Of a DNA stretch of 64,000 bases, positions 2,507 through 35,406 are shown piece after piece. Made by a program: the position numbers and the translations under genes. Each line of letters opens with the position of its first letter. The stretch's first letter is position 1. Origin of the DNA: Yuukianura sp. NJ FZ-2021 (Eukaryota); NCBI GenBank assembly GCA_046563655.1, contig CM102290.1:5952001-6016000 (forward strand). The letters run 5' to 3'. The notes under the pieces were generated by a model, which was not told where the DNA came from, searched no databases, and was given only the letters and a program-made list of their open reading frames with translations.

Positions 2507-2717
2507 CTGTGTACTAACTTTATGACTGTGGATCACTTTATGGAAAGAGAGTTGCCTAAAATGAAGGAAGAGACCGGCAAACATTGGTCGGATTGTAAAG
2601 AAAAGGTCCGGTCGTTTTTTGAAGCAAACTTTAATCACAACGTTGATGTTGACATGACAACTCATTCGGTTGAGAGAATGCAATAGTGAACAATGTAACA
2701 ATATTGTTTCTTTCAGC

Positions 2718-2913
2718 CAGTGTTGGTGGATATCCACTTTTCTGGCATTTCATCCACGGCTGGATATCCAGTGGAAAAAATGGACGAAATGGATGAATTC
2801 AAAGGGGCTGAGGTTGGCCCGCGGGGTTTGAATTAATTAAATACAAAAAGCTTAAATAATTCAAAATAACCGTAAAAAGACGAAGGAAATATCGTTTTTG
2901 TACGAGTTTTAAA
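2718..2913. mobile_element. Left-end fragment of the hAT-like MITE family also seen at 2953-3813
   Basis: cagtgttggtggatatccacttt...catttcatccacggctggatatccagtgg is near-identical to the sequence starting at 2953. Another related left end lies near 63697. Confidence 0.6.
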
Positions 2914-2952
2914 TAAATAAACCGGTTGTAAACCGCCCATAATGATAATAGC

Positions 2953-5228: not shown

Positions 5229-6205
5229 ATTATAATAGTGAAGCTATTATGATAAAAGTGGTTTGTCTGTCCGTCCGTCCGTCCGTCCGTCTGTCTGTCC
5301 GGATTAATTATCTCAGAAACTACTGATCCGATTTGATTCCGGTTTTCACCAGTGATGATGTCATGACCCGGGCTTGGTCACTATTTAATATGACCCCGGG
5401 TGTCAACTCCATCCGGGTCAAAGGTCAAGGTCAACCGGTTTCATCCCCGGTAACATGGAAAATGACCTCTACAAAAGTTGTTCGTCTCATCGAGGGGAAC
5501 AACTTTTGTGTACATCAAGTAACCCTAGGTCAACTCCTTCCGGGTCAAAATCGATTTTAAGGTCATTCGTAATGCAAGTGTGGGTAAAAAAAACTGCTTG
5601 TGAGACTGGAAATGCAATTGGCATGGAAGTTGGTTCTCTGCTTAGCAAAAAATCTATTACGCAGTTGACATATACACTCTACACACTCGTGCACTGCGTC
5701 CACCGGGTATCACCTGTCACTTGCCGAGTGTCACCTGTCACCTGTCACTTGCCGGGTGTCACCTGGCACCTGTTAATTGCCGGGTGTCACCTGTTACATA
5801 CCGGGTGTCACCTGTCACTTGCCGGGTGTCACCTGTCACGTGCCGCGTCACCTGTCATCCTCAAGTGTCACTTACCGGGTGTCACCTGTCACGTCTCACC
5901 TATCACCTGTCACTCCTCAGCTGTCACGGCTCACCTGTCAAAACCCCCTGGGGGGCGGGAAAGTGGGGAGAACACACCCCCACTACCCCGGGGGGTGGGG
6001 GCGGGAGCGTGGAGGGGAACACACCCCACGCCTCCTGGGGTGCGGAGCAAAAAAGCGGGAAAACACACCCCCACTCCCCCGGCGGGGCGGGAAAGTTGGG
6101 GGAACACACCCCCGCTCACCCGTGGAGGGGGGGGCTTCAGTGTGATTTACAAAACTTTTCTATTCTTCGCTATTATCATTATGGGCGGTTTACAACCGGT
6201 TTATT
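5229..6205 (+). mobile_element. Full-length HINE family 1 copy (non-autonomous Helentron)
   Basis: 5' subTIR hairpin ataatagtgaagctattat, then GTCC/GTCT microsatellite, conserved core, GTCACCT minisatellite, 3' subTIR cttcgctattat, terminal hairpin gcggtttacaaccgg and T-rich end. Confidence 0.8.
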
Positions 6206-7158
6206 TAAGATCCAATTGTGCAGAATGTTTATTTTCATATTCTGCAGAAGCTGATATTGTCTAGTTCAGAGCTTTGTATATGTTGCCAATTCCATTTGCT
6301 TCAAACTTCAAAATCGGTTTCAACTTGTTAGTAACTATATATGTTAATAATTTAAATGAAAACTATTTGCAGCAATTTGAGTTTTTAGAGATTTCTACAA
6401 GTTATAACTTTACGTACTTCCGGTTAGGTTCGGCAGCCTACATTAGAAAAAAGAATTCTGTTAGGTACACTAACCTAGGATAGTTAGCCTAAATTAAAAA
6501 TTTAAGTCTGCAGCCAACATAGTATCATAAATACAAAAAAAACTAACGTGAAATCGAGCTTTCGCAGTCTTCAAACAAAATCGTAACGGAACTCGCCGCC
6601 ATCTCTGTTTTAGTCTTCTGGAGATGCATGTCTTGGACATGCTGAAGAAGACTGTTGATACGACTTTGTCCGTCTGTCCGTCCGTCACACTTTTTAGGAC
6701 CCTTTCCACTGAAACAAGCCCCATCGACGTCGGGGGGTTATGTATGGCTTAAGAGTTTTTAGTAGTTCTACATTGCACTTAAATATTAAATTAACAACGT
6801 AGAAGTCGGCGGCTTAACGAAAACGCTTTGACTTAGTTTCCACTCAAAGTATTTATAAACAACGGGGTTTTGATCTGGTCATTTTCTGACAGTTAGTCGA
6901 ATTACGTTGTTAAGTTAAGCCTAGTTGGAAGGTAGAAATTCCGGCTTAAATTCTTAATACGTAAACAGTATTTCGCAGGGTTCAAAGCCTTTGCAAGAAA
7001 TTTTTATAATTATGATTTTGAACAAGGGATATTCGACTCCACAACTTATGCACTTACTTTAACACATGGTGCATGTGTTTGAAACGATTTTGATTTAAAA
7101 ATGCTATATTCGACGCCTGCCCCTCAACGTCCAATTTTGTGCACACTTATAAGTAGAT

Positions 7159-9699
7159 ATATAACAACATCTCTCCGCCATCTTCATTCAACTTAACATC
7201 TAATTACAACCTGACGCGTCAAGAACAAAAATCAACACAGTGGAACTGTTCTAAACTGGTGCAATCTAAACTCGCCGACGGTGACATCCGTGGATCCATC
7301 CGAGTTCTATGTTCTGACGACTGTTCTGCCCCGGATGACTCCTCTACTATTGATGCTCTCAACCAACTACACCCGACTCACCCAATGCCTATCAACTTCC
7401 CGAACCCACCACCTCAAAAAGACAACATCATCGAAGACTGTGACATCCTAAAATCCATTTCTTCATTTCCAAACGGTTCCTCGGGTGGCCTTGACTCCCT
7501 TCGTCCGCAAATTCTAAAGGAGCTAACATCAAAATCTTCTGGCGATGCAGGTTTAACACTTCTCTCTTCCATCTCTAAGCTGTGCAACCTCATTACCAAT
7601 GGATCTCTGCCTGACGACATCCGACCAATCTTCTTTGGCGCTTCTCTAATTGCGATACAAAAGAAAAAGGGTGGAATCCGGCCAATCGCCATCGGCCTGA
7701 CGTGGAGACGCCTTGCATCGAAACTGATCCTGTCTCGTTCGATGAACATTATCACGTCCGTCTTGAGCCCAATTCATGTAGGGATCGGCGTCAAGAACGG
7801 AGCCGAAGCCGTCGCCCATGCTGCCCGGATATACTGCAACGCCAATCACTCATCGCCGAAAGTTCTCGTGAAATTAGATTTTAGTAATGCGTTCAATCTC
7901 CTCCGAAGAGACGAGATGCTGAACACCGTGAAATACCATCTCCCGGATTTCTTCAATTTTGTGTCTCAAGCTTATTCCATCGAAACTGACTTATTCTACA
8001 ATGAGAACTGCATCAAATCAAAGTTAGGCATCCAGCAGGGGGATCCCCTAGGACCTGCACTTTTCGCCTTAACCATTCGTCCACTGGCCTCATCTTTAAC
8101 CACCGAATTCAATTGTTGGTACTTGGATGACGCCAATCTCGCTGACTCTCCAGATGTAATTCTTGAGAATCTCAAAACGATCCAATCAAATGCCCCATCA
8201 TTTGGACTACACCTCAACATGAAGAAGTGTGAAATAGTTATTCTATCTGCTGACAACGATGAAAGAAAGTTGATTTCCAGCGCCTTCAAAGCACTTTCTC
8301 CTGAACTTGTCCTTCCTGAGAAAGACCAAGCGGAACTCTTTCAAAGATTCTTCAAGACGCATTCTCAAGTTGAAGACTTCAAAACACTCTCTTCAAAACT
8401 ATCCTCCCTGCCTGCCCATGTAGCATTTTTCTTACTGTGGGCCTCATTATCAACTCCAAGAATGTTATACTTCCTTAGATGTTCTCCATCATTTCTGGAA
8501 ACGGACCTTCTTTTAGAGTATGATTCAGCTCTACGCACCGTACTGGAATCCATCCTCAACTCAAGTTTGACTGAAGAGGCATGGTGTCAATTTTCACTGC
8601 CGGTGAATCAAGGAGGCTTAGGTGTTCGTCATGCTTCGAACTGTGCTACTCTCTCGTTTTTGGCTTCAGTTCATAGTTGTGCCGAGCTCATCTCTGCCTT
8701 TCTTCCGAGTCATCTATCGCCATTTGACACCTCAGTGGACATCGCTTCTCTCAATTGGTCCGAACTGGGTTTTGAGACACCTCAATACGGGAAAGTCCAA
8801 AAGCAATGGGAACAGCAGATTTTCAAACAAATTTACTCCTCTCTACTCGAAAACTCGTCTACTCAAACCGACAAAGCCCGTTTGCTCGCTGGTTACGCCC
8901 CTCACTCTGGTGACTGGTTGAATGGTATTCCATCTTCTCCTCTGGGCACTCTCCTAACCGATGAACAATTCCGAATCGCCTGTTCAGTTCGGTTGGGAAC
9001 AGAAATCTGCCAACCCCATCGTTGCCACTGTGGAACTTCAGTTCTGAGTGATGGACTACATGGCCTAAGTTGTACTAGAAGCGCCGGAAGACAATCAACA
9101 CATGGTTCTGTAAACGACATCATCGCAAGATCACTTCGGACAGCAGGGATACCTTGCATGAAAGAACCTTCTGGCTGTTCCAGAACTGATGGAAAACGAC
9201 CTGATGGAATTACTCTCATTCCTTGGAAATCCGGTCGCTCCCTTGCCTGGGACTTTAACTGCCGTGACACCTTAGCTGCGTCCTACCTAGCAACATCATC
9301 TTCCGTTCTTGGTCATCCTGCTGCCATTGCCGAAATCCATAAGCATGACCTCTACCGTGACCTTGACCATCGATTTATTGTTTCCATCATTGCAGTCGAG
9401 ACAACTGGAGTCTTCGGGGAAGAAGGCCGACGTCTACTCAATTCCATTGGACATCGCCTCTCAGAAGCCACCGGTGACAATCGAGCAACATCCTTCCTCT
9501 TTCAACGAATTAGCCTTGCCATCCAAAGAGGAAATGCCACTTCTATATTATGAACCCTACCGTCAGGAAAAGAACTCTACGAAATCTACATGATTTAAAC
9601 ATTTTTTCAATACTTCTTTAAATATCTCAACCTGCCTCTGGCAGGTGTAAGTTTTTTCAGTTCTGTTGTGTTAAATAAAGAAATTTTATGTTGTTTAAG
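7159..9699 (+). mobile_element. 5'-truncated CRE-clade non-LTR retrotransposon
   Basis: 14-bp TSD ACTTATAAGTAGAT at 7145-7158 and 9700-9713; an empty copy of the same site is visible near 10279; AATAAA near 9674 but no poly(A) tail. Confidence 0.85.
7160..9553 (+). CDS. Reverse transcriptase with C-terminal zinc-knuckle-like motif and restriction-like endonuclease (CRE/CZAR-type ORF, N-terminus missing)
   Basis: GIRPIAIG, LDFSNAFN, QQGDPLGP, YLDD; C-x-C...HGLSC; RPDG...WD...ETTG endonuclease. The frame is open back to the 5' junction. Confidence 0.9.
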   Translation, partial: YNNISPPSSFNLTSNYNLTRQEQKSTQWNCSKLVQSKLADGDIRGSIRVLCSDDCSAPDDSSTIDALNQLHPTHPMPINFPNPPPQKDNIIEDCDILKSISSFPNGSSGGLDSLRPQILKELTSKSSGDAGLTLLSSISKLCNLITNGSLPDDIRPIFFGASLIAIQKKKGGIRPIAIGLTWRRLASKLILSRSMNIITSVLSPIHVGIGVKNGAEAVAHAARIYCNANHSSPKVLVKLDFSNAFNLLRRDEMLNTVKYHLPDFFNFVSQAYSIETDLFYNENCIKSKLGIQQGDPLGPALFALTIRPLASSLTTEFNCWYLDDANLADSPDVILENLKTIQSNAPSFGLHLNMKKCEIVILSADNDERKLISSAFKALSPELVLPEKDQAELFQRFFKTHSQVEDFKTLSSKLSSLPAHVAFFLLWASLSTPRMLYFLRCSPSFLETDLLLEYDSALRTVLESILNSSLTEEAWCQFSLPVNQGGLGVRHASNCATLSFLASVHSCAELISAFLPSHLSPFDTSVDIASLNWSELGFETPQYGKVQKQWEQQIFKQIYSSLLENSSTQTDKARLLAGYAPHSGDWLNGIPSSPLGTLLTDEQFRIACSVRLGTEICQPHRCHCGTSVLSDGLHGLSCTRSAGRQSTHGSVNDIIARSLRTAGIPCMKEPSGCSRTDGKRPDGITLIPWKSGRSLAWDFNCRDTLAASYLATSSSVLGHPAAIAEIHKHDLYRDLDHRFIVSIIAVETTGVFGEEGRRLLNSIGHRLSEATGDNRATSFLFQRISLAIQRGNATSIL

Positions 9700-20249: not shown

Positions 20250-21059
20250 TCATCTTGCATTCCCCGTCGCTCTTGTTTCACTGTTAAGTATTCTGAAATA
20301 GAGCAAGTCGGTAAAAGTTATTATAAACTTCTCTGCCCGTACAACCGTTAACGTCGATCCTGGTATTTCTACCATGGAAACGTCTGTATTTTCCATAACA
20401 AAAGTATTTCCCGGTGTTTTCTTCAAAACATAACAGTGGGTGCCTCGACGCCTAGGGATGAACCAAATGTTACCGTACACATCCGTCATCGTTAATGAAG
20501 GAATGGACTCTTTTGGTTTGAAAGGGTGTGTAATGTTTTGAATTTGCTGCGAACGGATGTCAAATAGCATTACAGAAAATTCTTTTTGAAATTTAGTGAC
20601 AAAAAGGATTGCAGAGCATTTCCGCGTCAGTATTGGGTCAAATAATTTAGAGACTTTATGTAACGGAAAATTTATTACTGTATGTCTCCGTTCAGTTCCT
20701 ACACTAATTTGATTTAATGTTCCATCTTCTTGCATCAAGTAAACGTCCCCGTCACAATCGCCATCAGATGGAAGTGAGAATTGTATTGGTAAATTCAACG
20801 GCGAAGCTTCCGTAAAGTTAGGAACAAGGGAAAAGAGAGACGATGAAACAGAATATTTTGAGGGTTTCCTTGTTATGATCGTCGCACTTCCTGGATAAAC
20901 TTCAGTGGCTAAGTAGTATATTGTATCATTGCCGTCAAACGAAGGCTGATCTACAAATGTTATACGAGGATCATGACCCAACTGTTCACTAGCTATTGGA
21001 TGTATTTTTAAGTAATTTAAATAAACCAGTTGGAAAGTAAAACTCAAGAATCTGATCAT
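20250..21059 (-). CDS. Unknown ORF, possibly an extracellular N-terminal exon of the RTK
   Basis: Long non-repetitive ORF with a hydrophobic start (MIRFLSFTFQLVYL) and N-x-S/T sites, on the same strand as and upstream of the RTK; no recognisable domain. Confidence 0.4.
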   Translation of the reverse strand: MIRFLSFTFQLVYLNYLKIHPIASEQLGHDPRITFVDQPSFDGNDTIYYLATEVYPGSATIITRKPSKYSVSSSLFSLVPNFTEASPLNLPIQFSLPSDGDCDGDVYLMQEDGTLNQISVGTERRHTVINFPLHKVSKLFDPILTRKCSAILFVTKFQKEFSVMLFDIRSQQIQNITHPFKPKESIPSLTMTDVYGNIWFIPRRRGTHCYVLKKTPGNTFVMENTDVSMVEIPGSTLTVVRAEKFIITFTDLLYFRILNSETRATGNAR

Positions 21060-21440
21060 TTTAGAAGAAAAAAACTTAGAAGTAACGTAGGTAATGTCAG
21101 AATTGTACAATTGAAATGTAAACTGTAGTTTACTTGCTGAGTATAAATATGTTAATGCTGAAGAAGCATGAAGCATTCGAAAAAAAAAATAAAAATGAGG
21201 TTGACCATATTTCCGTTGATGCAATTCCGCTTGCATTTGTCATTGCAAGATTTCGTTTACTTAGAACTCGCCTGAAGGAAGGCTTGAAGGAAGTGAGTAG
21301 TATTTATTTCCTATGGACTATGACCCTAGGACCCCGCGTTGAGGTCAGAGGTCAACCTAAATAAAAATTGGGGAAATGTTTGCGTTGACGTCTGACTTCA
21401 ATGAGTCAGGTCATAGTCCACAGGACAAAAAAGAGTTCCC

Positions 21441-22348
21441 CATAGAGTTACAAAAACAATTCGATTTTTTTTCCTTTAACTAGTGGACATAAGTCATTTT
21501 TTCAACAAAATTTTTGAAGCATCTACAAGCCAGGTTCACACAAACTATGAATTGCAGGTGTCATTTTTTAAAATTTCGAAAATTATTCGCGAATTCACGA
21601 AAAAGTTAAATCTAGGGTTTTGTTTTTGAGAAAAACTATCAACCCTAATCTGTGATCCTGGAAAATGCGACTAGTAGTGGTGTGGACGCAGAGAGTAACT
21701 ATAGATTAGTTAATTTAACGTTCAAATTTACTTTAGGTGTGTTTAAGTACTGGAAACTATTTGGAAGTAGGGGAGATTTTATTTTACAGCAGAGTTTAAA
21801 TTGGAAAATTGGAAATACTATGGATCTAACACTACTGACCTCTGAAAATTATAGTTTTTTATACAAGTGTTACGAATAGTAGTTGGGTTTAGCTTAATGG
21901 TTTCCTGACTGGCAATGTAATGAAACCTAATCTTACAGTAAGTATTGTCTAATGACCAATGGAAATTTTTTATCGAATTTGTAGTTGCTTAAGATATTTA
22001 AATGTAATTTTATTCAAATCAGCTGCGCAACCCATTAAGAATAACTTTTTGGGTTGATGAGCCATCTTCTTGACACACCACTTGTCAAAATTACTGCCAT
22101 AACATACATGGACAGATATTTTTTTTTCTAGAAAACCAACTTTACACAATTTTGACAATTTTAGAACTTTTCAGAAATTAACGCTTCAATTTCATTTTTA
22201 TCGTGAGAACCGGGCTTAAACTGCAGATGAAAGCTGTTTTTATCCGCTCTGATCCGCTCTAGAAATGCTTCAAAACTTTTGTTGAAAAAATGCAGTATGT
22301 CCACTCTAGTTAAAAGAAAAAAAATCGAATTGTCTTGGTAACTCTATG
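21441..22348. mobile_element. P/hAT-like MITE (CATAGAG termini), copy 1
   Basis: Termini catagagtta.../...taactctatg; 8-bp TSD gagttccc/gacttccc (7 of 8 match); ends shared with 33776-34612. Confidence 0.75.
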
Positions 22349-22600
22349 GACTTCCCTCGTCATTCTGTACTTCGTACACTTGAATTTCTGTACGAATTCA
22401 CACTTGAATTTCTGTACTACGAAAATTTTCGAGTCCCGATTCTCAAAAAAAAAATGGGAAGAGGAGACCCTTGGGGTTTAAAAAAAAAATTTTTTTTTGC
22501 TCCAAACGTTACAAAAACGTAGAAAAAACGAGAAAAAATTTTTCGAAAATTTTGACCAAAAAACTTGGAAAAAAGTTTCGCTGCCCCAGAAAGGAGGTTA

Positions 22601-25600
22601 ATATAAACCGGTTGTAAACCGCGCATAACGAAATAGCTCAAGCCAAAAGACGGTTTACCCTCAGGTGGGGAATGTGGAATTACCCCCGGGTGAGTGGGGG
22701 TAGGTGCCCCCCACTGTTCAGCCCCCTCAGGGGAGTGGGGGTGTGTTCCCCTCACTTTTTCGCTCCGCACTCCAGGGGGCGTGGGTGTGTGTTCCCCACG
22801 CTTTTTTTCTCTGCAACCCAGGAGACGTGGGGGTGGGTCCCCTCACTTTTTCGCTCCCCAGGGGGAGTGGGGGTGTTCCAGCCAATTTCCCGCCTCCCAG
22901 GGGAAGTGGGGGTGTTCCCCGCACTTTTTTGCTCCGCTCCCCAGAAAGCGCGGGGGTGTGTTCCGCCACTTTTCCGCCCTCCAAAGAGAGTGGTGGTGTT
23001 CCCCCGCTTTTTTGCTCCGCACTCCAGGGGACGTGGGGGTGGGTTCCCCCACTTTTTGCTCCGCACCCCAGGGAGCGAGGGGGTGTGTTCCGCCACTTTT
23101 CCGCTTCCACCCCCGAGTGAGAGGTGGTAGGTTCCCCGGGGGAGAGGAGGTGTGTTCCCCAGGGGAGAGGTTAGGCTAGGTTAGGTTAGGACGTTAACCT
23201 AACCTAAAACGAGGTGTGTTTCCCGGAGGAGAGGGGGTGGGTTCGCCGGAAGAGAGGAGTGGGTTCGCCGGGGGCAAGGGGTGGGTTCCCCTGAGAAGAG
23301 GGGGTGGTTCCCCGGGGAGAGGGGGTGCGTTCTCCACTTCCTGACTCCCCATGGGGTGCAGCAGTGACTTCAAACAGAGATGTGGAGAAGCGGTGGGATC
23401 CGGATGAAGCAACAACAGAACGACTGGATAGGCGACACTGGACACAGTGCATGAGTGTGTATATGTCAACTGCGTAATAGATTTTTTGCTAAGCAGAGAA
23501 CCAAGTCCCTCGCCAATTGCCTTTCCAGTCTGACATGCAGTCTTTTTTTACCCACACTTGCATTACGAATGACTTTTGAAATTGATTTTGACCCGGAAGG
23601 AGTTGACCTAGGGTCACTTGATGTACACAACACACATGGGGGTGGGTTCCCCACTGTTTTGCTCCGCACCCCAGGGGGCGTGGGGGAGCGTTCCCCTAGT
23701 TTCTCACGCCCATCCCCCGGAGAAGCGGGAGTGTGTTCCCCGGGGGAAAGGTGGTGAGTTCCCCGGGGGGAGAAAGGGTGGGATTTCCGGGGGAAAGGTG
23801 GTGAGTTCCCCGGGGGGAGAGGGTGGGTTCTCCGGGGGAAGAGAGGGTGGATTCCCCGGGGGAAGAGGGAGTGGGTTTCCCAGAAGAGAGGCGGTGGGTT
23901 TCCCGGAAGAGAGGGGGTGTGTTCCCCGGTGGAGAGGGAGTGGGTTCCCCCGGCGTGTGGGGAAGGTTTCCCCGGAGGTGTGAGGGTGGGTCACCCGGGG
24001 GTATGGCGCGGTCCTCAACGCTTCCCAGCAAGCAGGACGTTAATATGAAAAAAAGTTGACCTTTGACCCGGAAGCAGGTCACTTGGGGTCATTTGATGTA
24101 CACAAAAGTTGTTGGTCTCGATGAGACGAACAACTTTTGTAGAGGTCATTTTCCATGTTACCGGGGGGTAGAACCGGTGACCTTGACCTTTGACCCGGAA
24201 GGAGTTGAGCCACCGGGATAATATTTAATAGTGAACAGGTTGGGGTCATGGGATGTTGATTGGTGAAAACGGGAACCAAATCGGTCCAGCAGTTTCTGAG
24301 ATAATTGAGCTGGACAGACGGACAGACGGACAGACAGACAGACATGAATCAGATTATTAAATAGTTTTCGCTATTTAATAAACCGGTTGTAAACCGCCCA
24401 TACTGATAATAGCGAAGCAATAGGCCCCCCGAAGGGGGTTTGTTCCCCCCACTTTCCTGCCTCCCCCCCGTTGGAAGTGGGGGTGTGTTTTCCCCACTTT
24501 CCCGCCCCCCCGGGGAGTAATGGTGTGTTTTCCCGCTTTTTTGCTCCGCACCCCAGGATGCGTGGGGGTGTGTTCCCCCCACTTTCCCGCCCCCCCCCCG
24601 GGGTAGTGGGGGTGTGCTCCCCCTCACTTTCCCGTCCCCCCCAGGGGGTGTTGACATGTGAGACGTGACAGCTGAGGCGTGACAGGTGACAGGTGAGACG
24701 TGACAGGTGACACCCGGCAAGTGACACGTGAGGGTGACAGGTGACACGTGAGGGTGACAGGTGACACGTGAGTGTGACAGGTGACACGTGAGTGTGACAG
24801 GTGACACGCGGCAAGTGACACGTGAGGGTGACAGGTGACACGCGGCACGTGGCAGGTGACACCCGGCAAGTGACAGGTGACACCCGGCATGTGACAGGTG
24901 ACACCCGGCACGTGATAAGTGACAGGTGACACCCGGCACGTGACAGGTGAGAGGTGACATCCGGAAAGTGACAGGTGACAGCTGACACCCGGCAAGTGAC
25001 AGGTGACAGCTGACACCCGGCAAGTGACAGGTGACACCCGGAAAGTGACAGGTGACACCCGGAAAGTGACAGGTGACACCCGGAAAGTGACAGGTGAGAG
25101 GTGACACCCGGAAAGTGACAGGTGAGAGGTGATACCCGGAAAGTGACAGGTGACAGCTGACACCCGGCACGTGACAGGTGAAGTGACAGATGAAGTGTGA
25201 CAGGTGACAGTTGAGTGTGTTAGTCAACTGCGTAATGGATTTTTTGCTAAGCAGAGAACCAAGTCCCATGCCAATTGCCTTTCCAGTCTCACAAGCAGAG
25301 TTTTTGTACCCACACTTGCATTACAAATGACCTTTAAAATCGATTTTGACCCGGAAGCAGGTGACCTAGGGTCACACATTACACACAAAAGTTGTTTGTC
25401 TTGATGAGATAAACAACTTTTGTAGAGGTCATTTTCTGGGTTACCAGGGATGAAACCGGTTGACCTTGACCTTTGACCCGGAAGGAGTTGCCCCACGGGG
25501 GTCATATTCAATAGTGAATAGGTCCGGGTCATGACATGGTCACTGGTGAAAACCCGGTTGAAATTGGTCCAATAGTTCCGGAGCAAATCGTTCTAATGTT

Positions 25601-26701
25601 TTCCGGGACAGACAGACAGACGGACAGACAAACCTCTTTTATCATAATAGCTTCGCTATTATAATAAACCGGTTGTAAACCGCCCATAATGATAATAGCG
25701 AAGATAGGGCCCCCCAAGGGGGTGTGTTCCCCCCACTTTCCCGCCCCCCAGGGGAGTGGGGATGTTCCCCGCACTTTTTTGCTCCGCACCCCAGGGAGCG
25801 CGGGAGGTGTTCCCCCCAATTTCCCGCCCCCCAGGGGAGTGGGGATGTTCCCCGCACTTTTTTGCTCCGCACCCCAGGGAGCGCGGGGTATGTTCCCCCC
25901 ACTTTTCGGCCCCCCCCCGGGTGAGTGTGGGTGTGTTCCCCCCACTTTCCCGCCCCCCCAGGGGGTGTTGACATGTGAGACGTGACAGTTGAGGAGTGAC
26001 AGGTGACAGGTGAGACGTGACAGGTGACACCCGGCAAGTGACACGTGAGGGTGACAGGTGACACGCGGCAAGTGACACGTGAGTGTGACAGGTGACACGC
26101 GGCAAGTGACACGTGAGTGTGACAGGTGACACGCGGCAAGTGACACGTGAGTGTGACAGGTGACACGCGGCACGTGACAGGTGACACCCGGTATGTGACA
26201 GGTGACACCCGGCAAATGACAGGTGACACCCGGCAATTAACAGGTGACAGGTGACACCCGGCAAGTGACAGGTGACACCCGGTGGACACAGTGCATGAGT
26301 GTGTGAAGTGTATATGTCAACTGCGTAATAGATTTTTTGCTAAGCAGAGAACCAACTCCCATGCCAATTGCCTTTCCAGTCTCACAAGCAGAGTTTTTTG
26401 TACCCACACTTGCATTACAAATGACCTTTGAAATCCATTTTGACCCGGAAGCAGGTGACCTAGGGTCACACATTACACACAAAAGTTGTTTGTCTTGATG
26501 AGATAAACAACTTTTGTAGAGGTCATTTTCTGGGTTACCAGGGATGAAACCGGTTGACCTTGACCTTTGACCCGGAAGGAGTTGCCCCACGGGGGTCATA
26601 TTCAATAGTGAATAGGTCCGGGTCATGAGATGGTCACTGGTGAAAACCCGGTTGAAATTGGTCCAATAGTTCCGGAGCAAATCGTTCTAATGTTTTCCGG
26701 G

Positions 26702-26752
<51 letters not shown>

Positions 26753-27890
26753 TCTTCTATAATAATAGCTTCGCTATTATAATAAACCGGTTGTAAACCG
26801 CCCATACTGATAATAGCGAAGCAATAGGCCCCCCGAAGGGGGTTTGTTCCCCCCACTTTCCCGACCCCCCCCCCCGGTGGAGTGGGGGCGTGTTTCCCCC
26901 ACTTTCCCGCCCCCCCCCGGGGAGTAGGAGTGTGTTCCCCCCACTCTCCCGCCCCCTCCCCAGGTGGTGTTGACAGGTGAGACGTGACAGCTGAGGCGTG
27001 ACAGGTGACAGGTGAGACGTGACAGGTGACACCCGGCAAGTGACACGTGAGGGTGACAGGTGACACGTGAGGGTGACAGGTGACACGTGAGTGTGACAGG
27101 TGACACGTGAGTGTGACAGGTGACACGCGGCAAGTGACACGTGAGGGTGACAGGTGACACGCGGCAAGTGACACGTGAGTGTGACAGGTAACACGCGGCA
27201 CGTGGCAGGTGACACCCGGCAAGTGACAGGTGACACCCGGCATGTGACAGGTGACACCCGGCACGTGATAAGTGACAGGTGACACCCGGCACGTGACAGG
27301 TGAGAGGTGACATCCGGAAAGTGACAGGTGACAGCTGACACCCGGCAAGTGACAGGTGACAGCTGACACCCGGCAAGTGCCAGGTGACACCCGGAAAGTG
27401 ACAGGTGAGAGGTGACACCCGGAAAGTGACAGGTGACAGCTGACACCCGGCACGTGACAGGTGAAGTGACAGATGAAGTGTGACAGGTGACAGTTGAGTG
27501 TGTTAGTCAACTGCGTAATGGATTTTTTGCTAAGCAGAGAACCAAGTCCCATGCCAATTGCCTTTCCAGTCTCACAAGCAGAGTTTTTGTTACACACACT
27601 TGCATTACAAATGACTTTTAAAATCGATTTTGACCCGGAAGCAGGTGACCTAGGGTCACACATTACACACAAAAGTTGTTTGTCTTGATGAGATAAACAA
27701 CTTTTGTAGAGGTCATTTTCTGGGTTACCAGGGATGAAACCGGTTGACCTTGACCTTTGACCCGGAAGGAGTTGCCCCACGGGGGTCATATTCAATAGTG
27801 AATAGGTCCGGGTCATGAGATGGTCACTGGTGAAAACCCGGTTGAAATTGGTCCAATAGTTCCGGAGCAAATCGTTCTAATGTTTTCCGG

Positions 27891-27921
<31 letters not shown>

Positions 27922-28590
27922 GGACAGACAAACCTCTTTTATCATAATAGCTTCGCTATTATAATAAACCGGTTGTAAACCGCCCATACTGATAATAGCG
28001 AAGCAATAGGCCCCCCGAAGGGGGTTTGTTCCCCCACTTTCCCGCCCCCCCAGGGGGTGTTGACAGGTGAGGCGTGACAGGTGACAGGTGACACCCGGCA
28101 AGTGACAGGTGACACCCGGCAACTGAGAGGTGACAGGTGACACCCGGCAGGTGACAGGTGACACCCGGTGGACACAGTGCACGAGTGTGTAAAGTGTATA
28201 CTATGCCAACTGCGTAATAGATTTTTTGCTAAGCAGAGAACCAAGTCCCATGCCAATTGCCTTTCCAGTCTCACAAGCAGAGTTTTTGTTACCCACACTT
28301 GCATTACAAATGACCTTTGAAATCCATTTTGACCCGGAAGCAGGTGACCTAGGGTCACATATTATACACAAAAGTTGTTTGTCTTGATGAGATAAACAAC
28401 TTTTGTAGAGGTCATTTTCTGGGTTACCAGGGATGAAACCGGTTGACCTTGACCTTTGACCCGGAAGGAGTTGCCCCACGGGGGTCATATTCAATAGTGA
28501 ATAGGTCCGGGTCATGAGATGGTCACTGGTGAAAACCCGGTTGAAATTGGTCCAATAGTTCCGGAGCAAATCGTTCTAATGTTTTCCGGG

Positions 28591-28625
<35 letters not shown>

Positions 28626-31167
28626 GACAGACAAACCACTTTTATCATAATAGCTTCGCTATTATAATAAACCGGTTGTAAACCGCCCATAATGATAATA
28701 GCGAAGAATAGGGAAGTTTTGTAAATCACACTGAAGCCCCCCCCCTCTCCAAAGGTGAGCGGGGGTGTGTTCCCCCAACTTTCCCGCCTCGCCGGGGAGT
28801 GGCGGTGTGTTTTGCCGCTTTTTTGCTCCGCACCCCAGGAGGCGTGGGGGTGTGTTCCCCCCACTTTCACGCCCCCCCCTTTCGGGGTAGTGGGCGTGTG
28901 TTCCCCCCACTTTCCCGCCCCTCCCAGGGGGTGTTGACAGGTGACACCCGGCAAGTGACACTTGAGGGTGACAGGTGACACGCGGCACGTGACAGGTGAC
29001 ACCCGGAAAGTGACAGGTGAGAGGTGACACCCGGAAAGTGACAGGTGACAGCTGACACCCGGCACGTGACAGGTGAAGTGACAGATGAAGTGTGACAGGT
29101 GACAGTTGAGTGTGTTAGTCAACTGCGTAATGGATTTTTTGCTAAGCAGAGAACCAAGTCCCATGCCAATTGCCTTTCCAGTCTCACAAGCAGAGTTTTT
29201 GTTACCCACACTTGCATTACAAATGACCTTTGAAATCCATTTTGACCCGGAAGCAGGTGACCTAGGGTCACATATTATACACAAAAGTTGTTTGTCTTGA
29301 TGAGATAAACAACTTTTGTAGAGGTCATTTTCTGGGTTACCAGGGATGAAACCGGTTGACCTTGACCTTTGACCCGGAAGGAGTTGCCCCACGGGGGTCA
29401 TATTCAATAGTGAATAGGTCCGGGTCATGAGATGGTCACTGGTGAAAACCCGGTTGAAATTGGTCCAATAGTTCCGGAGCAAATCGTTCTAATGTTTTCC
29501 GGGACAGACAGACAGACAGACGGACAGACAAACCACTTTTATCATAATAGCTTCGCTATTATAATAAACCGGTTGTAAACCGCGCATACTGATAATAGCG
29601 AAGCAATAGGGCCCTCCGAAGGGGGTTTGTTCCCCCCACTTTCCCGCCCCCCCCGGGGGTGTTGACAGGTGAGGCGTGACAGGTGACAGGTGACACCCGG
29701 CAAGTGACAGGTGACACCCGGCAACTGAGAGGTGACAGGTGACACCCGGCAGGTGACAGGTGACACCCGGTGGACACAGTGCACGAGTGTGTAAAGTGTA
29801 TACTATGCCAACTGCGTAATAGATTTTTTGCTAAGCAGAGAACCAAGTCCCATGCCAATTGCCTTTCCAGTCTCACAAGCAGAGTTTTTTTTTACCCACA
29901 CTTGCATTACAAATGACCTTTGAAATCCATTTTGACCCGGAAGCAGGTGACCTAGGGTCACATATTATACACAAAAGTTGTTTGTCTTGATGAGATAAAC
30001 AACTTTTGTAGAGGTCATTTTCTGGGTTACCAGGGATGAAACCGGTTGACCTTGACCTTTGACCCGGAAGGAGTTGCCCCACGGGGGTCATATTCAATAG
30101 TGAATAGGTCCGGGTCATGAGATGGTCACTGGTGAAAACCCGGTTGAAATTGGTCCAATAGTTCCGGAGCAAATCGTTCTAATGTTTTCCGGGACAGACG
30201 GACAGACGGACAGACAGACAGACGGACGGACAGACAAACCTCTTTTATCATAATAGCTTCGCTATTATAATAAACCGGTTGTAAACCGCCCATAATGATA
30301 ATAGCGAAGAATAGGGAAGTTTTGTAAATCACACTGAAGCCCCCCCCCTCTCCAAAGGTGAGCGGGGGTGTGTTCCCCCAACTTTCCCGCCTCGCCGGGG
30401 AGTGGCGGTGTGTTTTGCCGCTTTTTTGCTCCGCACCCCAGGAGGCGTGGGGGTGTGTTCCCCCACTTTCACGCCCCCTTTCGGGGTAGTGGGCGTGTGT
30501 TCCCCCCACTTTCCCGCCCCTCCCAGGGGGTGTTGACAGGTGACACCCGGCAAGTGACACTTGAGGGTGACAGGTGACACGCGGCACGTGACAGGTGACA
30601 CCCGGCAAGTGACAGGTGACAGGTGACACCCGGCAATTAACAGGTGACAGGTGACACCCGGTATTTGACAGGTGACACCCGGCAATTAACAGGTGACAGG
30701 TGACACCCGGCAAGTGACAGGTGACACCCAGTGGACACAGTGCACGTGTGTGTAGAGTGTATATGTCAACTGCGTAATAGATTTTTTGCTAAGCAGGGAA
30801 CCAAGTCCCATGCCAATTGCCTTTCCAGTCTCACAAGCAGAGTTTTTTTTTACCCACACTTGCATTACAAATGACCTTTGAAATCCATTTTGACCCGGAA
30901 GCAGGTGACCTAGGGTCACATATTATACACAAAAGTTGTTTGTCTTGATGAGATAAACAACTTTTGTAGAGGTCATTTTCTGGGTTACCAGGGATGAAAG
31001 CGGTTGACCTTGACCTTTGACCCGGAAGGAGTTGCCCCACGGGGGTCATATTCAATAGTGAATAGGTCCGGGTCATGAGATGGTCACTGGTGAAAACCCG
31101 GTTGAAATTGGTCCAGTAGTTCCGGAGCAAATCGTTCTAATGTTTTCCGGGACAGACGGACAGACGG

Positions 31168-31198
<31 letters not shown>

Positions 31199-32383
31199 AA
31201 CCACTTTTATCATAATAGCTTCGCTATTATAATAAACCGGTTGTAAACCGCCCATAATGATAATAGCGAAGAATAGGGAAGTTTTGTAAATCACACTGAA
31301 GTCCCCCCCCCTCCAAAGGTTAGCGGGGGTGTGTTCCCCCAACTTTCCCGCCCCGCCGGGGGAGTGGGGGTGTGTTTTCCCGCTTTGTTGCTCCGCACCA
31401 CAGGAGGCGTGGGGGTGTGTTCCCCCCACTTTCCCGCCCCCCAGGGGATGTTGGCAGGTGAGACGTGACAGCTGAGGCGTGACAGGTAACAGGTGAGACG
31501 TGACAGCTGAGGCGTGACAGGTGAGACGTGACAGCTGAGGCGTGACAGGTGACAGGTGACAGCTGAGGCGTGACAGGTGACAGGTGAGACGTGACAGCTG
31601 AGGCGTGACAGGTGAGACGTGACAGGAGGCGTGACAGGTGACAGGTGAGACGTGACAGCTGAGGCCGTGACAGGTGAGACGTGACAGCTGAGGCGTGACA
31701 GGTGAAACGTGACAGCTGAGGCGTGACAGGTGACAGGTGAGATGTGACAGCTGAGGCGTGACAGGTGACACCCGGCAAGTGACACGTGAGGGTGACAGGT
31801 GACACGCGGCAAGTGACAGGTGACACGCGGCACGTGACAGGTGACACGCGGCACGTGACAGGTGACACCCGGCAAGTGACAGGTGACAGGTGACACCCGG
31901 TATTCGACAGGTGACACCCGGCAATTAACAGGTGACACCCGGCAACTGACAGGTGACACACGGTGGACACAGTGCATGAGTGTGTAAAGTGTATAATGTC
32001 AACTGCGTAATAGATTTTTTGCTAAGCAGAGAATCAAGTCCCATGCCAATTGCCTTTCCAGTCTCACAAGCAGAGTTTTTTGTACCCACACTTGCATTAC
32101 AAATGACCTTTGAAATCCATTTTGACCCGGAAGCAGGTGACCTAGGGTCACACATTAAACACAAAAGTTGTTCCCCTCGATGAGATGAACAACTTTTGTA
32201 GAGGTCATTTTCCCGGTTAACAGGGATAAAACCGGTTGACCTTGACCTTTGACCCGGAAGGAGTTGCCCCACGGGGGTCATATTCAATAGTGAATAGGTC
32301 CGGGTCATGAGATGGTCACTGGTGAAAACCCGGTTGAAATTGGTCCAATAGTTCCGGAGCAAATCGTTCTAATGTTTTCCGGG

Positions 32384-32438
<55 letters not shown>

Positions 32439-33239
32439 TCTTCTATAATAATAGCTTCGCTATTATAATAAACCGGTTGTAAACCGCGCATACTGATAAT
32501 AGCTCAGAAATAAGGGGTTGCCCCCCCCCGGGGGATGGGAGTGTTCCCCCCACTTTCCCGCCCCTCCAGGCGGAGTGGGGGTGTTTCCCCCACTTTCTTG
32601 CCCCACCCCCAGAGGGTGAGGGTATTCCCCCCACTTTCCCGCCCCACCCCCAGGGGAGTGAGGGTGTTCCCTCCAATTTCCCGCCACCCAAGGGGAGTGG
32701 TGGTGTTCCCCACACTTTTTTGCTCCGCACCCCAGGGAGCGCGGGGATGTGTTCCTTCCATGGGGTGTCGCAGTGACTTCAAACAAAGATGTGGACGGAG
32801 GAGGGGTGGGATTCGGATGAAGCAACAACAGAACGAATGAATTAGGCGACTCTGGACACGTGTATATGTCAACTACGTAGATTTTTCGCTAAGCAGAGAA
32901 CCAACTCGCCATGCCAATTGCCTTTCCAGTCTCACAAGCAGAGTTTTTTTTAGCCACACTTGCATTACAAATGACCTTTAAAATCGATTTGGACCCGGAA
33001 GCAGGTGACCTAGGGTCACACATTACACATAAAAGTTGTTGCTCTCGATGAGACGAACAACTTTTGTAGAGGTCATTTTCCATGTTACCGGGGATCAAAC
33101 CGGTTGACCTTGACCTTTGGCCCGGAAGGAGTTGACACCCGGGGGTCACATTCAATAGTGACCAAGCCCGGGTCATGACATGATCACTGGTGAAAACCGG
33201 AATCAAATCGGACCAGTAGGTTCTGAGATAATTAATCCG

Positions 33240-33291
<52 letters not shown>

Positions 33292-33326
33292 AACCACTTT
33301 TATCATAATAGCTTCGCTATTATAAT
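22601..33326 (-). repeat. Head-to-tail tandem array of 10 HINE family 1 (non-autonomous Helentron) units
   Basis: Junction motif cttcgctattat|aataaaccggttgtaaaccgc (slightly variant at the first) at ~24378, 25664, 26782, 27964, 28667, 29564, 30270, 31232 and 32468. Each unit has a conserved ~450-bp core, GACA/GACG microsatellite, and variable GTGACAG and G/C-rich blocks; unit length is ~0.7-1.8 kb. Confidence 0.85.
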
Positions 33327-33637
33327 GGGCCCAAGGTAAACAGAATACTACTAGGTAGTGCGAATGGAAAGTTTGTTTGGTTGCCATGTGGAAAAAAAAT
33401 GACGTCACTCGCTGAAAAATACCGGAATTCTGCCCATTAATGATGGTGTTCTATAGAAACCCGTAAGACGCATCTTGTTTACATAGATGCCAGCGGGTTT
33501 CAACTTCACGATTACGGTAATTTTTCAGCGGGTGACGTCACAAACAAAAATTGTGTTGGTTGCTATGGGCGCCATTTGCAGGGGCTGGTGAGGGCCTAAA
33601 AATGTAGGGCCTAAAGTGCTGAGGGCCTAATTTATCG

Positions 33638-34924
33638 TAGCAGGTCATAGCCGCCAAACCAAAAGCCGCCAATCAATAGCGGCCAATTTCTAATGCCGCC
33701 AATTCCTTAGCCGCCAATCTTAAAGCGGCCAATTTCTAAATGATTAAAGCCGCCAATGGGTAAAGTCGACAAAACCATAGAGTTACCATGACGATTCGAT
33801 TTTTTTTCCTTTAACTAGAGTGGACATAAGGCATTTTTTCAACAAAACTTTTGAAGCATTTACAAAGCGAAAAAAAAAAACGTTTTCATCTTAAGTTTAA
33901 GCCAGGTTCACACAAACTATGAATTGCCACACGGTGAGGCAATGTTGGGACTTACTATGGATGGATTGCACTATGTGACAACGTCTGTGCTTATATACTT
34001 AATTAATTAAATGCATTAAATAATTAATTATCATATTGTAGCAATGCCACAAAAGTGTACACCGCTGGGGTACAATTTTCGCTCGTTAACCCTTACTGCA
34101 GCACAAAAGGTATTCAAAATACCGGTATTCCCGCTTTGTCAAATTCAAAAGTTTAGACACATCGAAAGTACATTTTGTATTTATATTTAATAATCACCAA
34201 TTTTAAGTACGATTAGCACTAATAAGCGAAATTTTTATCGAATTTGTTGATTAAGATATTCAAATGTAATTTTATTCAAATCATCTGCTCGATCCTTTAA
34301 GAAGAAGAAATGTTTGGGTTGATGAGCCATTTTCTTGACACACCACTTGTCACAATTACTGCCAAAACATACATGGACAGATTTTTTTTTCTAGAAAACC
34401 AACTTTACACATTTTTGACAATTTTAGAACTTTTCAGAAATTAACGCTTCAATTTCATTTTTTATCGTGAGAACCGGGCTTAAACTTCAGATGAAAGTGG
34501 TTTTTATCCGCTCTGATTCGCTCTAGAAATGCTTCAAAAATTTTGTTGAAAAAATGCCTTATGTCCACTCTAGTTAAAGGGAAAAAAATCGAATTGTCAG
34601 GGTAACTCTATGGACAAAACTAAAAACTGGTTTTAATTTAATCTAGGTAGGCTATTTAGGTTGTGTTATACTTGATTAACGTACGTTAGGTTTGGTTAGG
34701 TCACGTTAATGTGAGTTACCACGTAGGGTGATTACCTTAAGTTATAATCAGCAGTTTCTAATTTTGTCGGCTTTAATCACTGGCGGCTATTGACGTTGGC
34801 TGCTTTAAAATAGGCCGCCAAGGAATTGACGGCTTTAGAAATTGGTCGGTTTAGGATTGGCGGCTTTAGAAATTGGCCGCTATTGATTGGCGGCTTTTGG
34901 ATTGGCTGCTATGACCTGGCACCC
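33638..34924. mobile_element. MITE with gccgccaa subrepeats, host of the nested P/hAT-like MITE
   Basis: gtagcaggtcatagccgcc... / ...ggctgctatgacctggcacc inverted ends. Confidence 0.55.
33776..34612. mobile_element. P/hAT-like MITE (CATAGAG termini), copy 2
   Basis: Termini catagagttacc/ggtaactctatg; perfect 8-bp TSD GACAAAAC at 33768-33775 and 34613-34620. Confidence 0.8.
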
Positions 34925-34941
34925 TAATTTAGGTTAGGTTA

Positions 34942-35406
34942 TGCTGGATTCACATTACACCCGCAACTTGCAGACTTTCTGCTAGTTGCAAGTTGTCACA
35001 GTTTTCTGCTTTCTGCGAGTTGCGTGTTCACACTGGACCTTTTCTCGAGTCCCGAATGATAAGGAAAGTTGCGGGGAGACGCTTCAAAGGAGGCACATCC
35101 AAAGTGGCGTTCATATGTGAACACTTTCACTTTGGGAATAGGGGAAAACATGCAGTTTCTGCCTTTCAGCTTCGTTTGACGAAGCTCACAAAATCTTGTC
35201 TGCGCAACCCTTTTGGAGCAGATTTTCTGCCGCAGTTTTGTGAGTGTGAACAGAAGCCGCAACTCCTTTCGGTAGAAAAAGCTGCCCGCAACTTTTGATA
35301 AAATTTTCTGCACATTCCAATTTCTAGTGTGAACGACGCGCATCAGCAGAGACCACCCAGAATTCGAGCAGAAATCTGCGAGTTGCGGTGTAATGTGAAT
35401 CCAGCA
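34942..35406. mobile_element. PIF/Harbinger-like MITE
   Basis: TIR tgctggattcacattacac / gtgtaatgtgaatccagca; TSD TTA. Confidence 0.75.

Follow-up and report, generated by a model that had tools for sequence, protein, structure and literature searches.

Tandem arrays of Helitrons as such are already known, the original accounts reportedly being those of Pritham and Feschotte 2007 and Xiong et al. 2016. Those ascribed to rolling-circle replication include bat Helibat, plant centromeric Helitrons, and Helitron-1_DPe on the Drosophila Y, as these sources present them (PMC7492417, PMC12628747, PMC5148889, 10.1101/2021.06.02.446622). In the model of Xiong et al. 2016, as relayed in PMC12628747, an array carries many 5' ends, a single 3' end, and truncated units of one origin; circular Helitrons with precise head-to-tail joints have been demonstrated experimentally (PMC4778049). 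For three tandem Helitron2-type copies in Metarhizium acridum, the account in PMC5148889 weighs insertion into the end of another copy against rolling-circle replication of a circle, and describes the detection of joined ends for FoHeli1. In the two-step scheme outlined by McGurk and Barbash 2018 (PMC5932611), site preference gives rise to tandem dimers, and unequal exchange then leads to expansion and to higher-order repeats.

Non-autonomous Helentron-type rolling-circle transposons (HINEs) are characterized in PMC4067079 by subTIRs of 12-15 nt, the 5' subTIR lying a few nt from the 5' terminus and the 3' subTIR tens of nt from the 3' terminus, by a palindrome near the 3' terminus, by insertion at TT without target-site duplication, by a lack of coding capacity, and by an autonomous partner that has the same termini and encodes Rep, helicase, and endonuclease. 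An inverted-repeat partner of the 5' subTIR, a microsatellite, and central tandem repeats are described as features of the DINE-1 and Cg_HINE type.

We analyzed a stretch of assembled sequence 64 kb in length (hereafter the window) and confirmed that it contains a 10.7-kb end-to-end chain of non-coding rolling-circle transposon copies. As a preliminary description had proposed, the ten units lie head to tail in a single orientation, on the minus strand; the lengths given there were matched by our recount, and its bounds of 22601-33326 are close to the recomputed 22603-33323 (Table 1). Judged from its layout, the region is a cluster of HINEs, an assignment made earlier that agrees with the schemes drawn in PMC4067079 and PMC7492417.

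Table 1. Coordinates of the array, its units, and related copies in the window. Unit lengths are counted without the single T that separates units.
Feature	Coordinates	Strand	Remarks
Array	22603-33323	-	U1 at high-coordinate end, U10 at low end; single T between successive units
U1	32468-33323	-	856 nt; outer subfamily
U2	31232-32466	-	1235 nt; inner unit
U3	30270-31230	-	961 nt; inner unit
U4	29564-30268	-	705 nt; short inner unit; paralogue of U6 (98.6% identity)
U5	28667-29562	-	896 nt; chimera
U5 5' subTIR	29551-29562	-	
U5 5' hairpin	29544-29562	-	
U5 (GTCY)n	29502-29529	-	
U5 core	29120-29503	-	
U5 leader and TGTCACC minisatellite	28934-29119	-	
U5 G-rich minisatellite	28707-28933	-	~44 nt period
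U5 3' subTIR	28695-28706	-	
U5 palindrome	28673-28685	-	CGGTT-TAC-AACCG
U5 terminus	28667-28672	-	GTTTAT
U6	27964-28665	-	702 nt; copy of U4 from the same unequal exchange as U5
U7	26782-27962	-	1181 nt; paralogue of U9 (4 core differences)
U8	25664-26780	-	1117 nt; mosaic; own 3' type ccctatcttcgc
U9	24378-25662	-	1285 nt; U7-like inner unit
U10	22603-24376	-	1774 nt; third subfamily, composite
Duplicated two-unit block	27329-30675	-	30675-28935 vs 29076-27329
Separate full-length (solo) copy	5232-6204	+	973 nt; U1-like core with U2/U3/U5-type 3' module
5'-truncated copy	4660-5231	-	U1-type 3' end
Core-less family member	2917-4658	-	1742 nt; downstream of second head-to-tail junction

Each unit is laid out as a series of modules, with 12-bp subTIRs, a 5' hairpin, a (GTCY)n microsatellite of 24-56 nt, a core of ~385 bp, two internal minisatellites (tandem repeats detected by TRF), and a 3' palindrome. 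A perfect 12-nt subTIR pair, ATAATAGCGAAG/CTTCGCTATTAT, is present in eight of the ten units: ATAATAGCGAAG stands at the 5' end of nine units, at a distance of 0-3 nt from the terminus that varies with the assignment of the terminal T/ATT, and CTTCGCTATTAT near the 3' end of eight, the U1 copy matching at 10 of 12 positions. U10 instead carries a shorter covarying pair, AAATAGC (5') and GCTATTT (3'), still mutually complementary. All eight inner units (U2-U9) have the start of the 3' subTIR 40 nt from the end, and in each of the ten units 6 nt separate the palindrome CGGTT-TAC-AACCG from the end. By itself this palindrome folds weakly (-4.7 kcal/mol, z = -1.9; 10/200 shuffles as good), and the 5' hairpin gives -4.3 kcal/mol with z = -4.7 (0/200 shuffles as good). 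The open reading frames inside the array are repeat translations, of which the longest (417 aa, 26623-27876) is without a Pfam match, and positions 21000-35000 match no Rfam family. No Rep/helicase gene was found among the 14 of 76 listed open reading frames of the window that were scanned. A reverse transcriptase at 7157-9553 is the only mobile-element enzyme in that set.

As described in PMC4067079 and PMC7492417, DINE-1 of Drosophila and Cg_HINE of the Pacific oyster share with these units the 12-nt subTIRs and a 5' hairpin built from a short inverted repeat, a left module ended by a (GTCY)n microsatellite, then a variable segment and central tandem repeats, and a right module of ~60 nt or less with 3' subTIR and palindrome, likewise without coding capacity; Cg_HINE_10_13 and Cg_HINE_11_12, as depicted, even have the two consecutive repeat arrays. 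However, the internal repeats are short here (7-nt based and ~44 nt) as against 140-180 nt in the HINEs described, and the elements portrayed in those two articles are dispersed and single whereas whole elements form an array at this locus. Three subTIR/palindrome motifs of the array had no occurrences in two supplementary files of PMC7492417.

Successive units are joined by a 39-nt sequence, CGGTTTACAACCGGTTTAT-T-ATAATAGCGAAGCTATTAT, identical at eight of the nine array junctions; the exception, U9|U10 (24376-24378), has a diverged 5' end, AAATAGCGAAAA, that exceeds three mismatches. A search of the window allowing up to three mismatches returned nine matches, the eight exact ones all inside the array and the ninth, with two mismatches, outside it at 4640-4678, against 0 expected by chance and none in 100 shuffled controls. 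Folded as a single strand (-13.8 kcal/mol, z = -4.3; 1/200 shuffles as good), the junction would form a stem from the 3' subTIR of one unit and the 5' subTIR of the unit that follows, with the 3' palindrome left in the loop. Each junction reads as the sequence expected of a circular transposition intermediate. The two outer 5' flanks in the window both end in ATT, the four outer 3' flanks continue after GGTTTAT with TT, TT, AT, and TA, and no target-site duplication is visible at the flanks of the array or at the solo copy. With just these flanks to go by, the termini cannot be fixed to the base, so that a precise circle-type joint and insertion at the terminal T fit the junction equally well. 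Since the window holds 12,809 TT/AA dinucleotides, random TT insertions would almost never hit a resident terminus exactly.

The units are not clones, and several subfamilies are represented, as had been suggested: compared over the 5' half of the core, U1 and U10 reach only 79-84% identity with the inner units. The motif cgatttgctccggaac, reported as an inner 5' variant, is indeed carried by U2-U9 but by neither U1 nor U10; an 11-nt block is missing from the 5' region of these two. Four 3'-end types were recovered at the positions given earlier, and U10 adds a fifth; over 150 nt, identity between the two main 3' modules is only 54-70%. Nevertheless, the notion of ten different variants overstates the diversity, because the cores of the eight inner units form mosaics with 95-100% identity, and the length differences among U2-U9 stem almost entirely from micro- and minisatellite copy number, without different unique sequence. 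The inner core is near constant at 383-385 nt and the inner 3' end measures 40 bp, while the TGTCACC tract ranges over 147-574 nt, the G-rich tract over 56-264 nt, and the 5' end plus microsatellite over 55-83 nt. Every unit has its own combination of modules and repeat counts. U1, which is without a TGTCACC minisatellite and has the 3' end type ...ttatttctgagctattatcag, shows in its 5' core half 94.6% identity with the solo copy (5232-6204) and 82.8-83.7% with the inner units. Among the inner units U2 diverges most, with 12-18 differences in the core alignment of 385 columns; it has a 5' variant, TATAGAAGACG, in common with U8 and a 3' type in common with U3 and U5. U7 has a long TGTCACC minisatellite (538 nt including the leader). 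In U10, a 5' part from 24376 to ~23632 comprises the terminus, microsatellite, core to about position 318, and 23-nt C-rich repeats, and a 3' part from ~23631 to 22603 begins again within the core near position 275 and reaches the 3' terminus; core positions ~275-318 are therefore present twice.

Recombination through the conserved core, which the preliminary description had envisaged, is supported by four-gamete incompatibility (core alignment columns 231 and 373 carry all four allele combinations) and by module reassortment. The nearest relative of U8 changes three times along its length, its 5' end and 3' core half being U2-like (98.2%) and its 5' core half identical to U4-U7; U4-U8 are in fact 100% identical in this half, though their 3' modules differ. 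A two-unit block is duplicated with 97.0% identity over 1757 aligned columns (28 mismatches, 7 gaps) and a period of ~1.6 kb; it spans two junctions, and its breakpoints lie inside TGTCACC minisatellites, away from element termini. An out-of-register duplication of several units, whose breakpoints bear no relation to element ends, is what a higher-order repeat evolving by unequal exchange would show. U5 is U7-like over positions 1-540 (7 substitutions and one 12-nt microsatellite indel) and U3-like over positions 541-896 (97.2%), the 3' part of U3 being the apparent donor, and U5 together with U6 can be derived from a single unequal crossover, given the chimeric U5 and the 98.6% identity of U4 and U6. 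Six core-site differences between U5 and U7 fall inside the block taken as duplicated, so that at least one further conversion event is needed.

Three further copies at 2.9-6.2 kb show that array-type sequences recur in the window. A second head-to-tail junction at 4658-4660 joins two different variants, the truncated copy and the core-less copy, the latter housing a nested element with terminal inverted repeats at ~2955-3810. The U2/U3/U5 3' type is 96.7% identical to the solo copy over the last 60 nt, and one of the two main 3' modules is 91.5-94% identical to an opposite-strand copy 17 kb away; the U1 3' type has its match, at 91.7% identity, in the truncated copy that ends at 4660. With U1 and U10 in other subfamilies and two 3' types recurring at 2.9-6.2 kb, the comparison indicates that the array is not the product of one ancestor. 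Outside the array, the proposal of several founders would rest on these three extra copies, and ectopic gene conversion from dispersed copies into a once-uniform array could mimic it.

The reading that we favor, with a probability of roughly 0.6, is that a few founders were joined end to end at the transposon terminus and were then subject to unequal exchange and gene conversion. The founders would have been a few different family members placed precisely end to end, at minimum one of U1 type, one of U10 type, and inner-type units with at least two kinds of 3' module. The joining would most likely have been done by an assumed Helentron transposase, which makes its cut and its new joint at the 3' terminus of the element itself: it would either have used the terminus of a resident copy as insertion point or have integrated a circular copy with joined ends beside or into a resident copy. 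The array was later remodelled and enlarged in place by homologous processes: an out-of-register exchange between the TGTCACC minisatellites of U7 and U3 yielded U5 and U6, gene conversion or further exchanges made the inner cores homogeneous and brought 5' ends, cores, and 3' modules into new combinations, and slippage in the micro- and minisatellites accounts for most length differences.

Had the array instead grown by ten separate insertions at resident ends, unit order would be a record of insertion history, as was first proposed. The complete ends on all units, the identity of eight of nine junctions, the interleaving of several 3' types, two of them matched outside the array, and the second heterogeneous junction at 4658-4660 would all suit such growth. 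However, the 1757-nt duplication crosses two junctions with breakpoints inside minisatellites, U5 combines U7-like and U3-like parts, and U4-U8 share an identical 5' core half beneath differing 3' modules. With U5 and U6 the products of one exchange, the sequence of units does not document ten successive insertions, and with the outer units the most divergent and the center the most uniform, there is no age gradient along it. Serial insertion is accordingly quite improbable as the origin of the whole array; insertion at the element's own end is a reasonable candidate only for the few junctions between different subfamilies. Amplification of a single local element, whether as a one-step rolling-circle concatemer or by unequal crossing-over from a dimer, with differences arising later by mutation, slippage, or conversion, would explain the 95-100% identity of the inner cores, the length differences in repeat copy number, and a junction equal to that expected of a circle, and has precedent in the arrays attributed to rolling-circle replication in PMC12628747, PMC5148889, and 10.1101/2021.06.02.446622. 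We consider it unlikely for the array at large, since the 5' core halves of U1 and U10 are 16-21% different from those of the inner units, both outer units lack the 11-nt block, the two main 3' modules are dissimilar while one closely resembles the distant opposite-strand copy, the U1 3' type recurs at 4660, and divergence is mosaic rather than star-like; restricted to the inner eight units, a single ancestor could still hold. An assembly error, in which dispersed copies or two haplotypes would have been erroneously concatenated or given a spurious duplication, is very improbable. The family is locally abundant, and 97% identity of the duplicated block is also possible between two haplotypes of a polymorphic genome, but no two units share the same set of modules and repeat counts, none of the nine junctions of the array is incomplete, a tenth lies elsewhere in the window, and unique flanks border the array on both sides. 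This reading is further disfavored because assemblers usually break at such repeats and seldom build ordered heterogeneous arrays.

Compared with described tandem Helitron arrays, the locus likewise consists of whole elements head to tail, with a junction that corresponds to the joined ends of a circular intermediate. Those arrays are, as reported, mostly of truncated units from one family, with many 5' ends and a single 3' end or with inner copies cut at the 3' side, whereas ten 3' ends, nine canonical 5' ends out of ten, and at least three mixed subfamilies are found here; a truncated rolling-circle concatemer does not fit the ten 3' and ten 5' ends and the subfamily mixture. Helentron-type elements make no target-site duplication. 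The elements treated by McGurk and Barbash 2018, as presented there (P, hobo, R1, jockey, and similar), leave such duplications between copies, and the double-insertion signature of PMC5932611 is therefore unreadable here, although the two-step model as outlined fits the mixed founders and the U4-U5/U6-U7 block; the main text of that article makes no mention of Helitron, DINE, or INE-1. The fungal Helitron2-type tandems pose the same alternative as the present array, but in the account of PMC5148889 they are autonomous, number three copies, and are reported without mixed subfamilies or later recombination.

End-to-end joining followed by reshuffling in place is a known way for transposons to begin becoming satellite DNA. 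We tentatively raise the possibility, itself rather doubtful, that the Helentron transposase prefers a resident 3' terminus or head-to-tail joint, with its subTIR stem and palindrome loop, as insertion site, and so stacks subfamilies end to end. If so, a terminus-preferring transposase would yield arrays of full-length, still mobilisable elements as a substrate for unequal exchange, and dispersed HINEs would have a transposase-directed path to satellite DNA without a rolling-circle concatemer.

Ten tandem units, designated U1 to U10 from the high-coordinate to the low-coordinate end and all read on the minus strand, make up an array of elements resembling HINEs (Helentron-associated interspersed elements, which are non-autonomous). 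The head-to-tail arrangement noted in the preliminary description is borne out, and the unit lengths (856, 1235, 961, 705, 896, 702, 1181, 1117, 1285 and 1774 nt for U1-U10) agree with the earlier figures. Units start with ATAATAGCGAAGCTATTAT and end with CGGTTTACAACCGGTTTAT, one T separating neighbours; the 5' start of U10 is diverged (AAATAGCGAAAA). When the window was searched with the 39-nt junction at up to three mismatches, nine matches were returned, as against none in each of 100 shuffles. Eight of these are exact and correspond to array junctions, the remaining one (two mismatches) lies at 4640-4678, and the joint between U9 and U10 is too diverged to match at this threshold. GC content is 0.50-0.54 across the array vs 0.35-0.40 in its surroundings.

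Coordinates of the array, related copies and neighbouring features (window positions)
Feature	Position	Strand	Remarks
Ten-unit HINE-like array	22603-33323	minus	all units in one orientation
Second cluster of the array's HINE family	2917-6204		comprises the next three entries
5'-truncated HINE copy	5231-4660	minus	joined head to tail with the core-less member by the same junction as in the array
Core-less family member	4658-2917	minus	differs from the truncated copy
Full-length copy	5232-6204	plus	5' end abuts the broken end of the truncated copy, head to head
Nested element, ~850 nt	2955-3810		terminal inverted repeats tgttgctggat.../...atccagcaaca
Partial second copy of nested element's end	2715-2866		83.7% over 153 nt
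Two direct copies of a ~0.9-kb element	21440-22351, 33775-34615		flank the array; 91% identical over 392 nt
Inverted pair around the right flanking copy	33626-33718/34841-34933		15-nt GCCGCCAAT-type repeats
Open frame, 798 aa	7157-9553		reverse transcriptase domain (RVT_1, E = 9e-17)
Long open frames	52897-55324	both	short repeated peptide motifs (e.g. ...GARFPVLG...)
Orphan 3'-terminus-like sequence	62691-62709	minus	CGATTTACAGCCGGTTTAT, 2 mismatches to the HINE end

Each unit opens with a 12-nt subterminal inverted repeat (subTIR), ATAATAGCGAAG, whose first 8 nt are predicted to pair with nt 12-19 in a hairpin (-4.3 kcal/mol, z = -4.7, 0/200 shuffles as good), and continues with a (GTCY)n microsatellite, 24-56 nt long. 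Then come a core of unique sequence, a leader, a TGTCACC-based minisatellite with higher periods of 21-56 nt, and a G-rich minisatellite with a period of ~42-46 nt. At the 3' end, the inverted subTIR partner CTTCGCTATTAT is separated by 10 nt from the palindrome CGGTT-TAC-AACCG, after which the unit closes with GTTTAT. The subTIR pair is perfect in eight of the ten units, and the 3' copy of U1 matches at 10/12 positions. The pair of U10 is shorter (AAATAGC/GCTATTT) and still mutually complementary, a covariation which suggests that pairing of the element ends matters. At the junctions, the 3' subTIR is predicted to pair with the 5' subTIR of the next unit in a stem of 12 bp whose loop contains the palindrome hairpin (-13.8 kcal/mol, z = -4.3, 1/200 shuffles as good). 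The longest open reading frame of the array matched no Pfam family, and a search of 21000-35000 matched no Rfam family.

This layout matches that published for HINEs, which are non-autonomous and partner Helentrons. HINEs carry subTIRs 12-15 nt long, microsatellites or tandem repeats and, close to the 3' end, a palindrome, and they prefer TT targets (Thomas et al. 2014, PMC4067079). In oyster HINEs, the subTIR, an inverted repeat and a GTCY-type microsatellite form the left flank; central repeats follow, in some cases as two arrays, and the right flank (~60 nt) contains a subTIR and a palindrome (Vojvoda Zeljko et al. 2020, PMC7492417). Our subTIR and palindrome motifs do not occur in the available part of that paper's supplementary text, and the four papers returned by a full-text literature search with four terminal motifs look unrelated (primers or similar), as judged by titles and abstract openings. 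Because no Rep/helicase gene was found in the window, the units are linked to Helentrons by structure only.

The array had been described as ten different variants, which overstates the diversity of the inner units (U2-U9). Their core (383-385 nt) and 3' end (40 nt) are constant in length, and it is the 5' end with microsatellite (55-83 nt), the leader with TGTCACC tract (147-574 nt) and the G-rich tract (56-264 nt) that vary. U2-U9 thus represent one core type in which the repeats vary in copy number and the end modules come in a few alternative forms.

Several observations indicate that the array grew and was reshuffled in place. Over 385 aligned columns, the inner cores are separated by only 1-18 differences, and the 5' core halves of U4-U8 are 100% identical. 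Among the matches listed by self-BLAST (megablast at 95% with culling), which include at least five long pairs, a 1757-nt block at 30675-28935 recurs at 29076-27329 with 97.0% identity. The block extends from the U3 minisatellite through all of U4 into the U5 minisatellite, and its copy from U5 through U6 into U7. U4 and U6 are 98.6% identical, U5 positions 1-540 differ from U7 by seven substitutions and one 12-nt microsatellite indel, and U5 positions 541-896 are 97.2% identical to the end of U3. On the simplest account, the TGTCACC tracts of U7 and U3 would have undergone a single out-of-register exchange in a ...U3-U4-U7... precursor, yielding ...U3-U4-U5-U6-U7.... Six of the differences between U5 and U7 are clustered in the core at sites where U5 is like U3, U4 and U6, and an additional conversion event must therefore be assumed. 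U8 is a mosaic: it shares its 5' end and its 3' core half (98.2%) with U2 and its 5' core half with U4-U7, and has a 3' type of its own. All four allele combinations are present at core columns 231 and 373 (2/21 pairs of informative columns are incompatible), and in 60-nt windows the inner units almost always have their nearest relative within the array. Unequal exchange, module reassortment and repeat-number change have thus occurred within the array. A second clean duplication around U7-U8-U9 could not be reconstructed: U7 and U9 are paralogous, yet no simple block model fits.

Such growth could in principle have started from a single ancestor of the whole array, but the evidence is against this. 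The 5' core halves of U1 and U10 are only 79-84% identical to those of the inner units, both lack the cgatttgctccggaac segment, having ggattaattatctcagaa-type sequence in its place, and the TGTCACC minisatellite is absent from both. Several array parts are, moreover, closer to copies outside the array. The 5' core half of U1 is 94.6% identical to the separate full-length plus-strand copy, and the 3' module (the alternative 3'-end sequence) of U2/U3/U5 matches that copy at 96.7% when the last 60 nt are compared and at 91.5-94% when the last 150 nt are. Its identity to the 3' modules of U4/U6/U7/U9 is only 54-70% over the last 150 nt. The end of the truncated copy is matched at 91.7% by the U1 3' type and at 75% or less by all other types. 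Different family members are also joined by the same junction in the second cluster, at 4660/4658. With U1/U2 and U9/U10, unlike members are precisely joined at at least three places in 64 kb, which, given 12,809 TT/AA dinucleotides in the window, random insertion at TT cannot explain.

For the initial end-to-end placement of unlike elements, we infer three routes that would yield the observed joint. A transposase whose nicking and joining take place at the 3' terminus of the element may target a resident terminus; a circular copy in which the ends are joined may recombine with a resident copy through the conserved core, giving a tandem pair and chimeric units; or read-through of internal 3' ends may move a composite of neighbouring elements in one piece. 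Circles with joined ends have been shown for Helraiser (PMC4778049), and joined ends for a Helitron2-type element (PMC5148889). The window data fit all three routes alike. Both outer 5' flanks end in ATT and the four outer 3' flanks after GGTTTAT are T, T, A and A; these six flanks do not separate a circle-type joint from insertion at a terminal T, and the termini are approximate at base level. The earlier interpretation, an ordered record of repeated self-targeted insertion and/or core recombination, is partly supported: several subfamilies were joined and recombination through the core is supported, but the order of units is no record of ten insertions, the array having also grown in place by unequal exchange.

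U10 is itself composite. Its first ~745 nt comprise the 5' end, microsatellite and core to ~position 318, together with C-rich repeats of 23 nt and a number of G-rich ones, after which the core restarts at ~position 275 and runs on to the 3' end. It may be either two units of the same subfamily fused by a cross-junction deletion or one unit with an internal duplication. At 23168-23208, a short inverted repeat of TTAGG-like pentamers (ttaggttaggttaacg / cctaacctaacc) breaks the 23-nt C-rich repeats, and its motif ttaacgtcct is found again where the first half of U10 has a break (~24025-24035).

In the second cluster, no remainder of the truncated copy's core was found beyond 6204. The nested element lies within the core-less member, between the 3' subTIR and the palindrome, and its end recurs, as the partial second copy, immediately downstream from where the HINE terminates. 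The ~0.9-kb elements flanking the array have inverted ends of ~90-140 nt; they were rejected as its cause, being 250 and 448 nt away and having nothing in common with the units. BLAST detected no other element parts near the orphan terminus. The 798-aa open frame, ~1 kb from the second cluster, is probably a retrotransposon, and the frames at 52897-55324 indicate an unrelated tandem-repeat tract of two blocks in opposite orientation. Protein domains encoded in the window (Ig, HMG-box, Myb/SANT-like, peptidase M16) look metazoan, and a homologue search with the peptidase M16 exon returned three hits of 43-48% identity, all from JGI sources.

For rolling-circle elements, the conversion of transposons into satellite DNA is usually attributed to replication concatemers. 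HINE-like SGM elements are reported to be the source of a satellite in Drosophila guanche. Tandem Helitron arrays are known and usually ascribed to rolling-circle replication, as summarised in other papers (PMC7492417, PMC12628747, PMC5148889 and the preprint 10.1101/2021.06.02.446622); those summaries stress truncated units and a single 3' end, unlike the present array. For three tandem fungal copies, insertion into the end of a different copy has been weighed against rolling-circle replication (PMC5148889), and the two-step model of McGurk and Barbash has insertion-site preference produce dimers which unequal exchange then expands (PMC5932611). No description of a full-length, mixed-subfamily HINE array was found in the open-access literature, bioRxiv supplements excepted.

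The locus clearly exemplifies a known process, in a somewhat unusual form, and is no new kind of system; being one locus from one window, it serves as a good example and is no surprise. An early stage of satellite formation is readable in it, with complete units of several subfamilies joined at a perfectly conserved terminus and a two-unit higher-order repeat already present from one identifiable unequal exchange. Should heterogeneous full-length junctions turn out to be common across the genome, they would favour the view that Helentron transposases direct insertion to element ends, for which this array would be a simple test locus.
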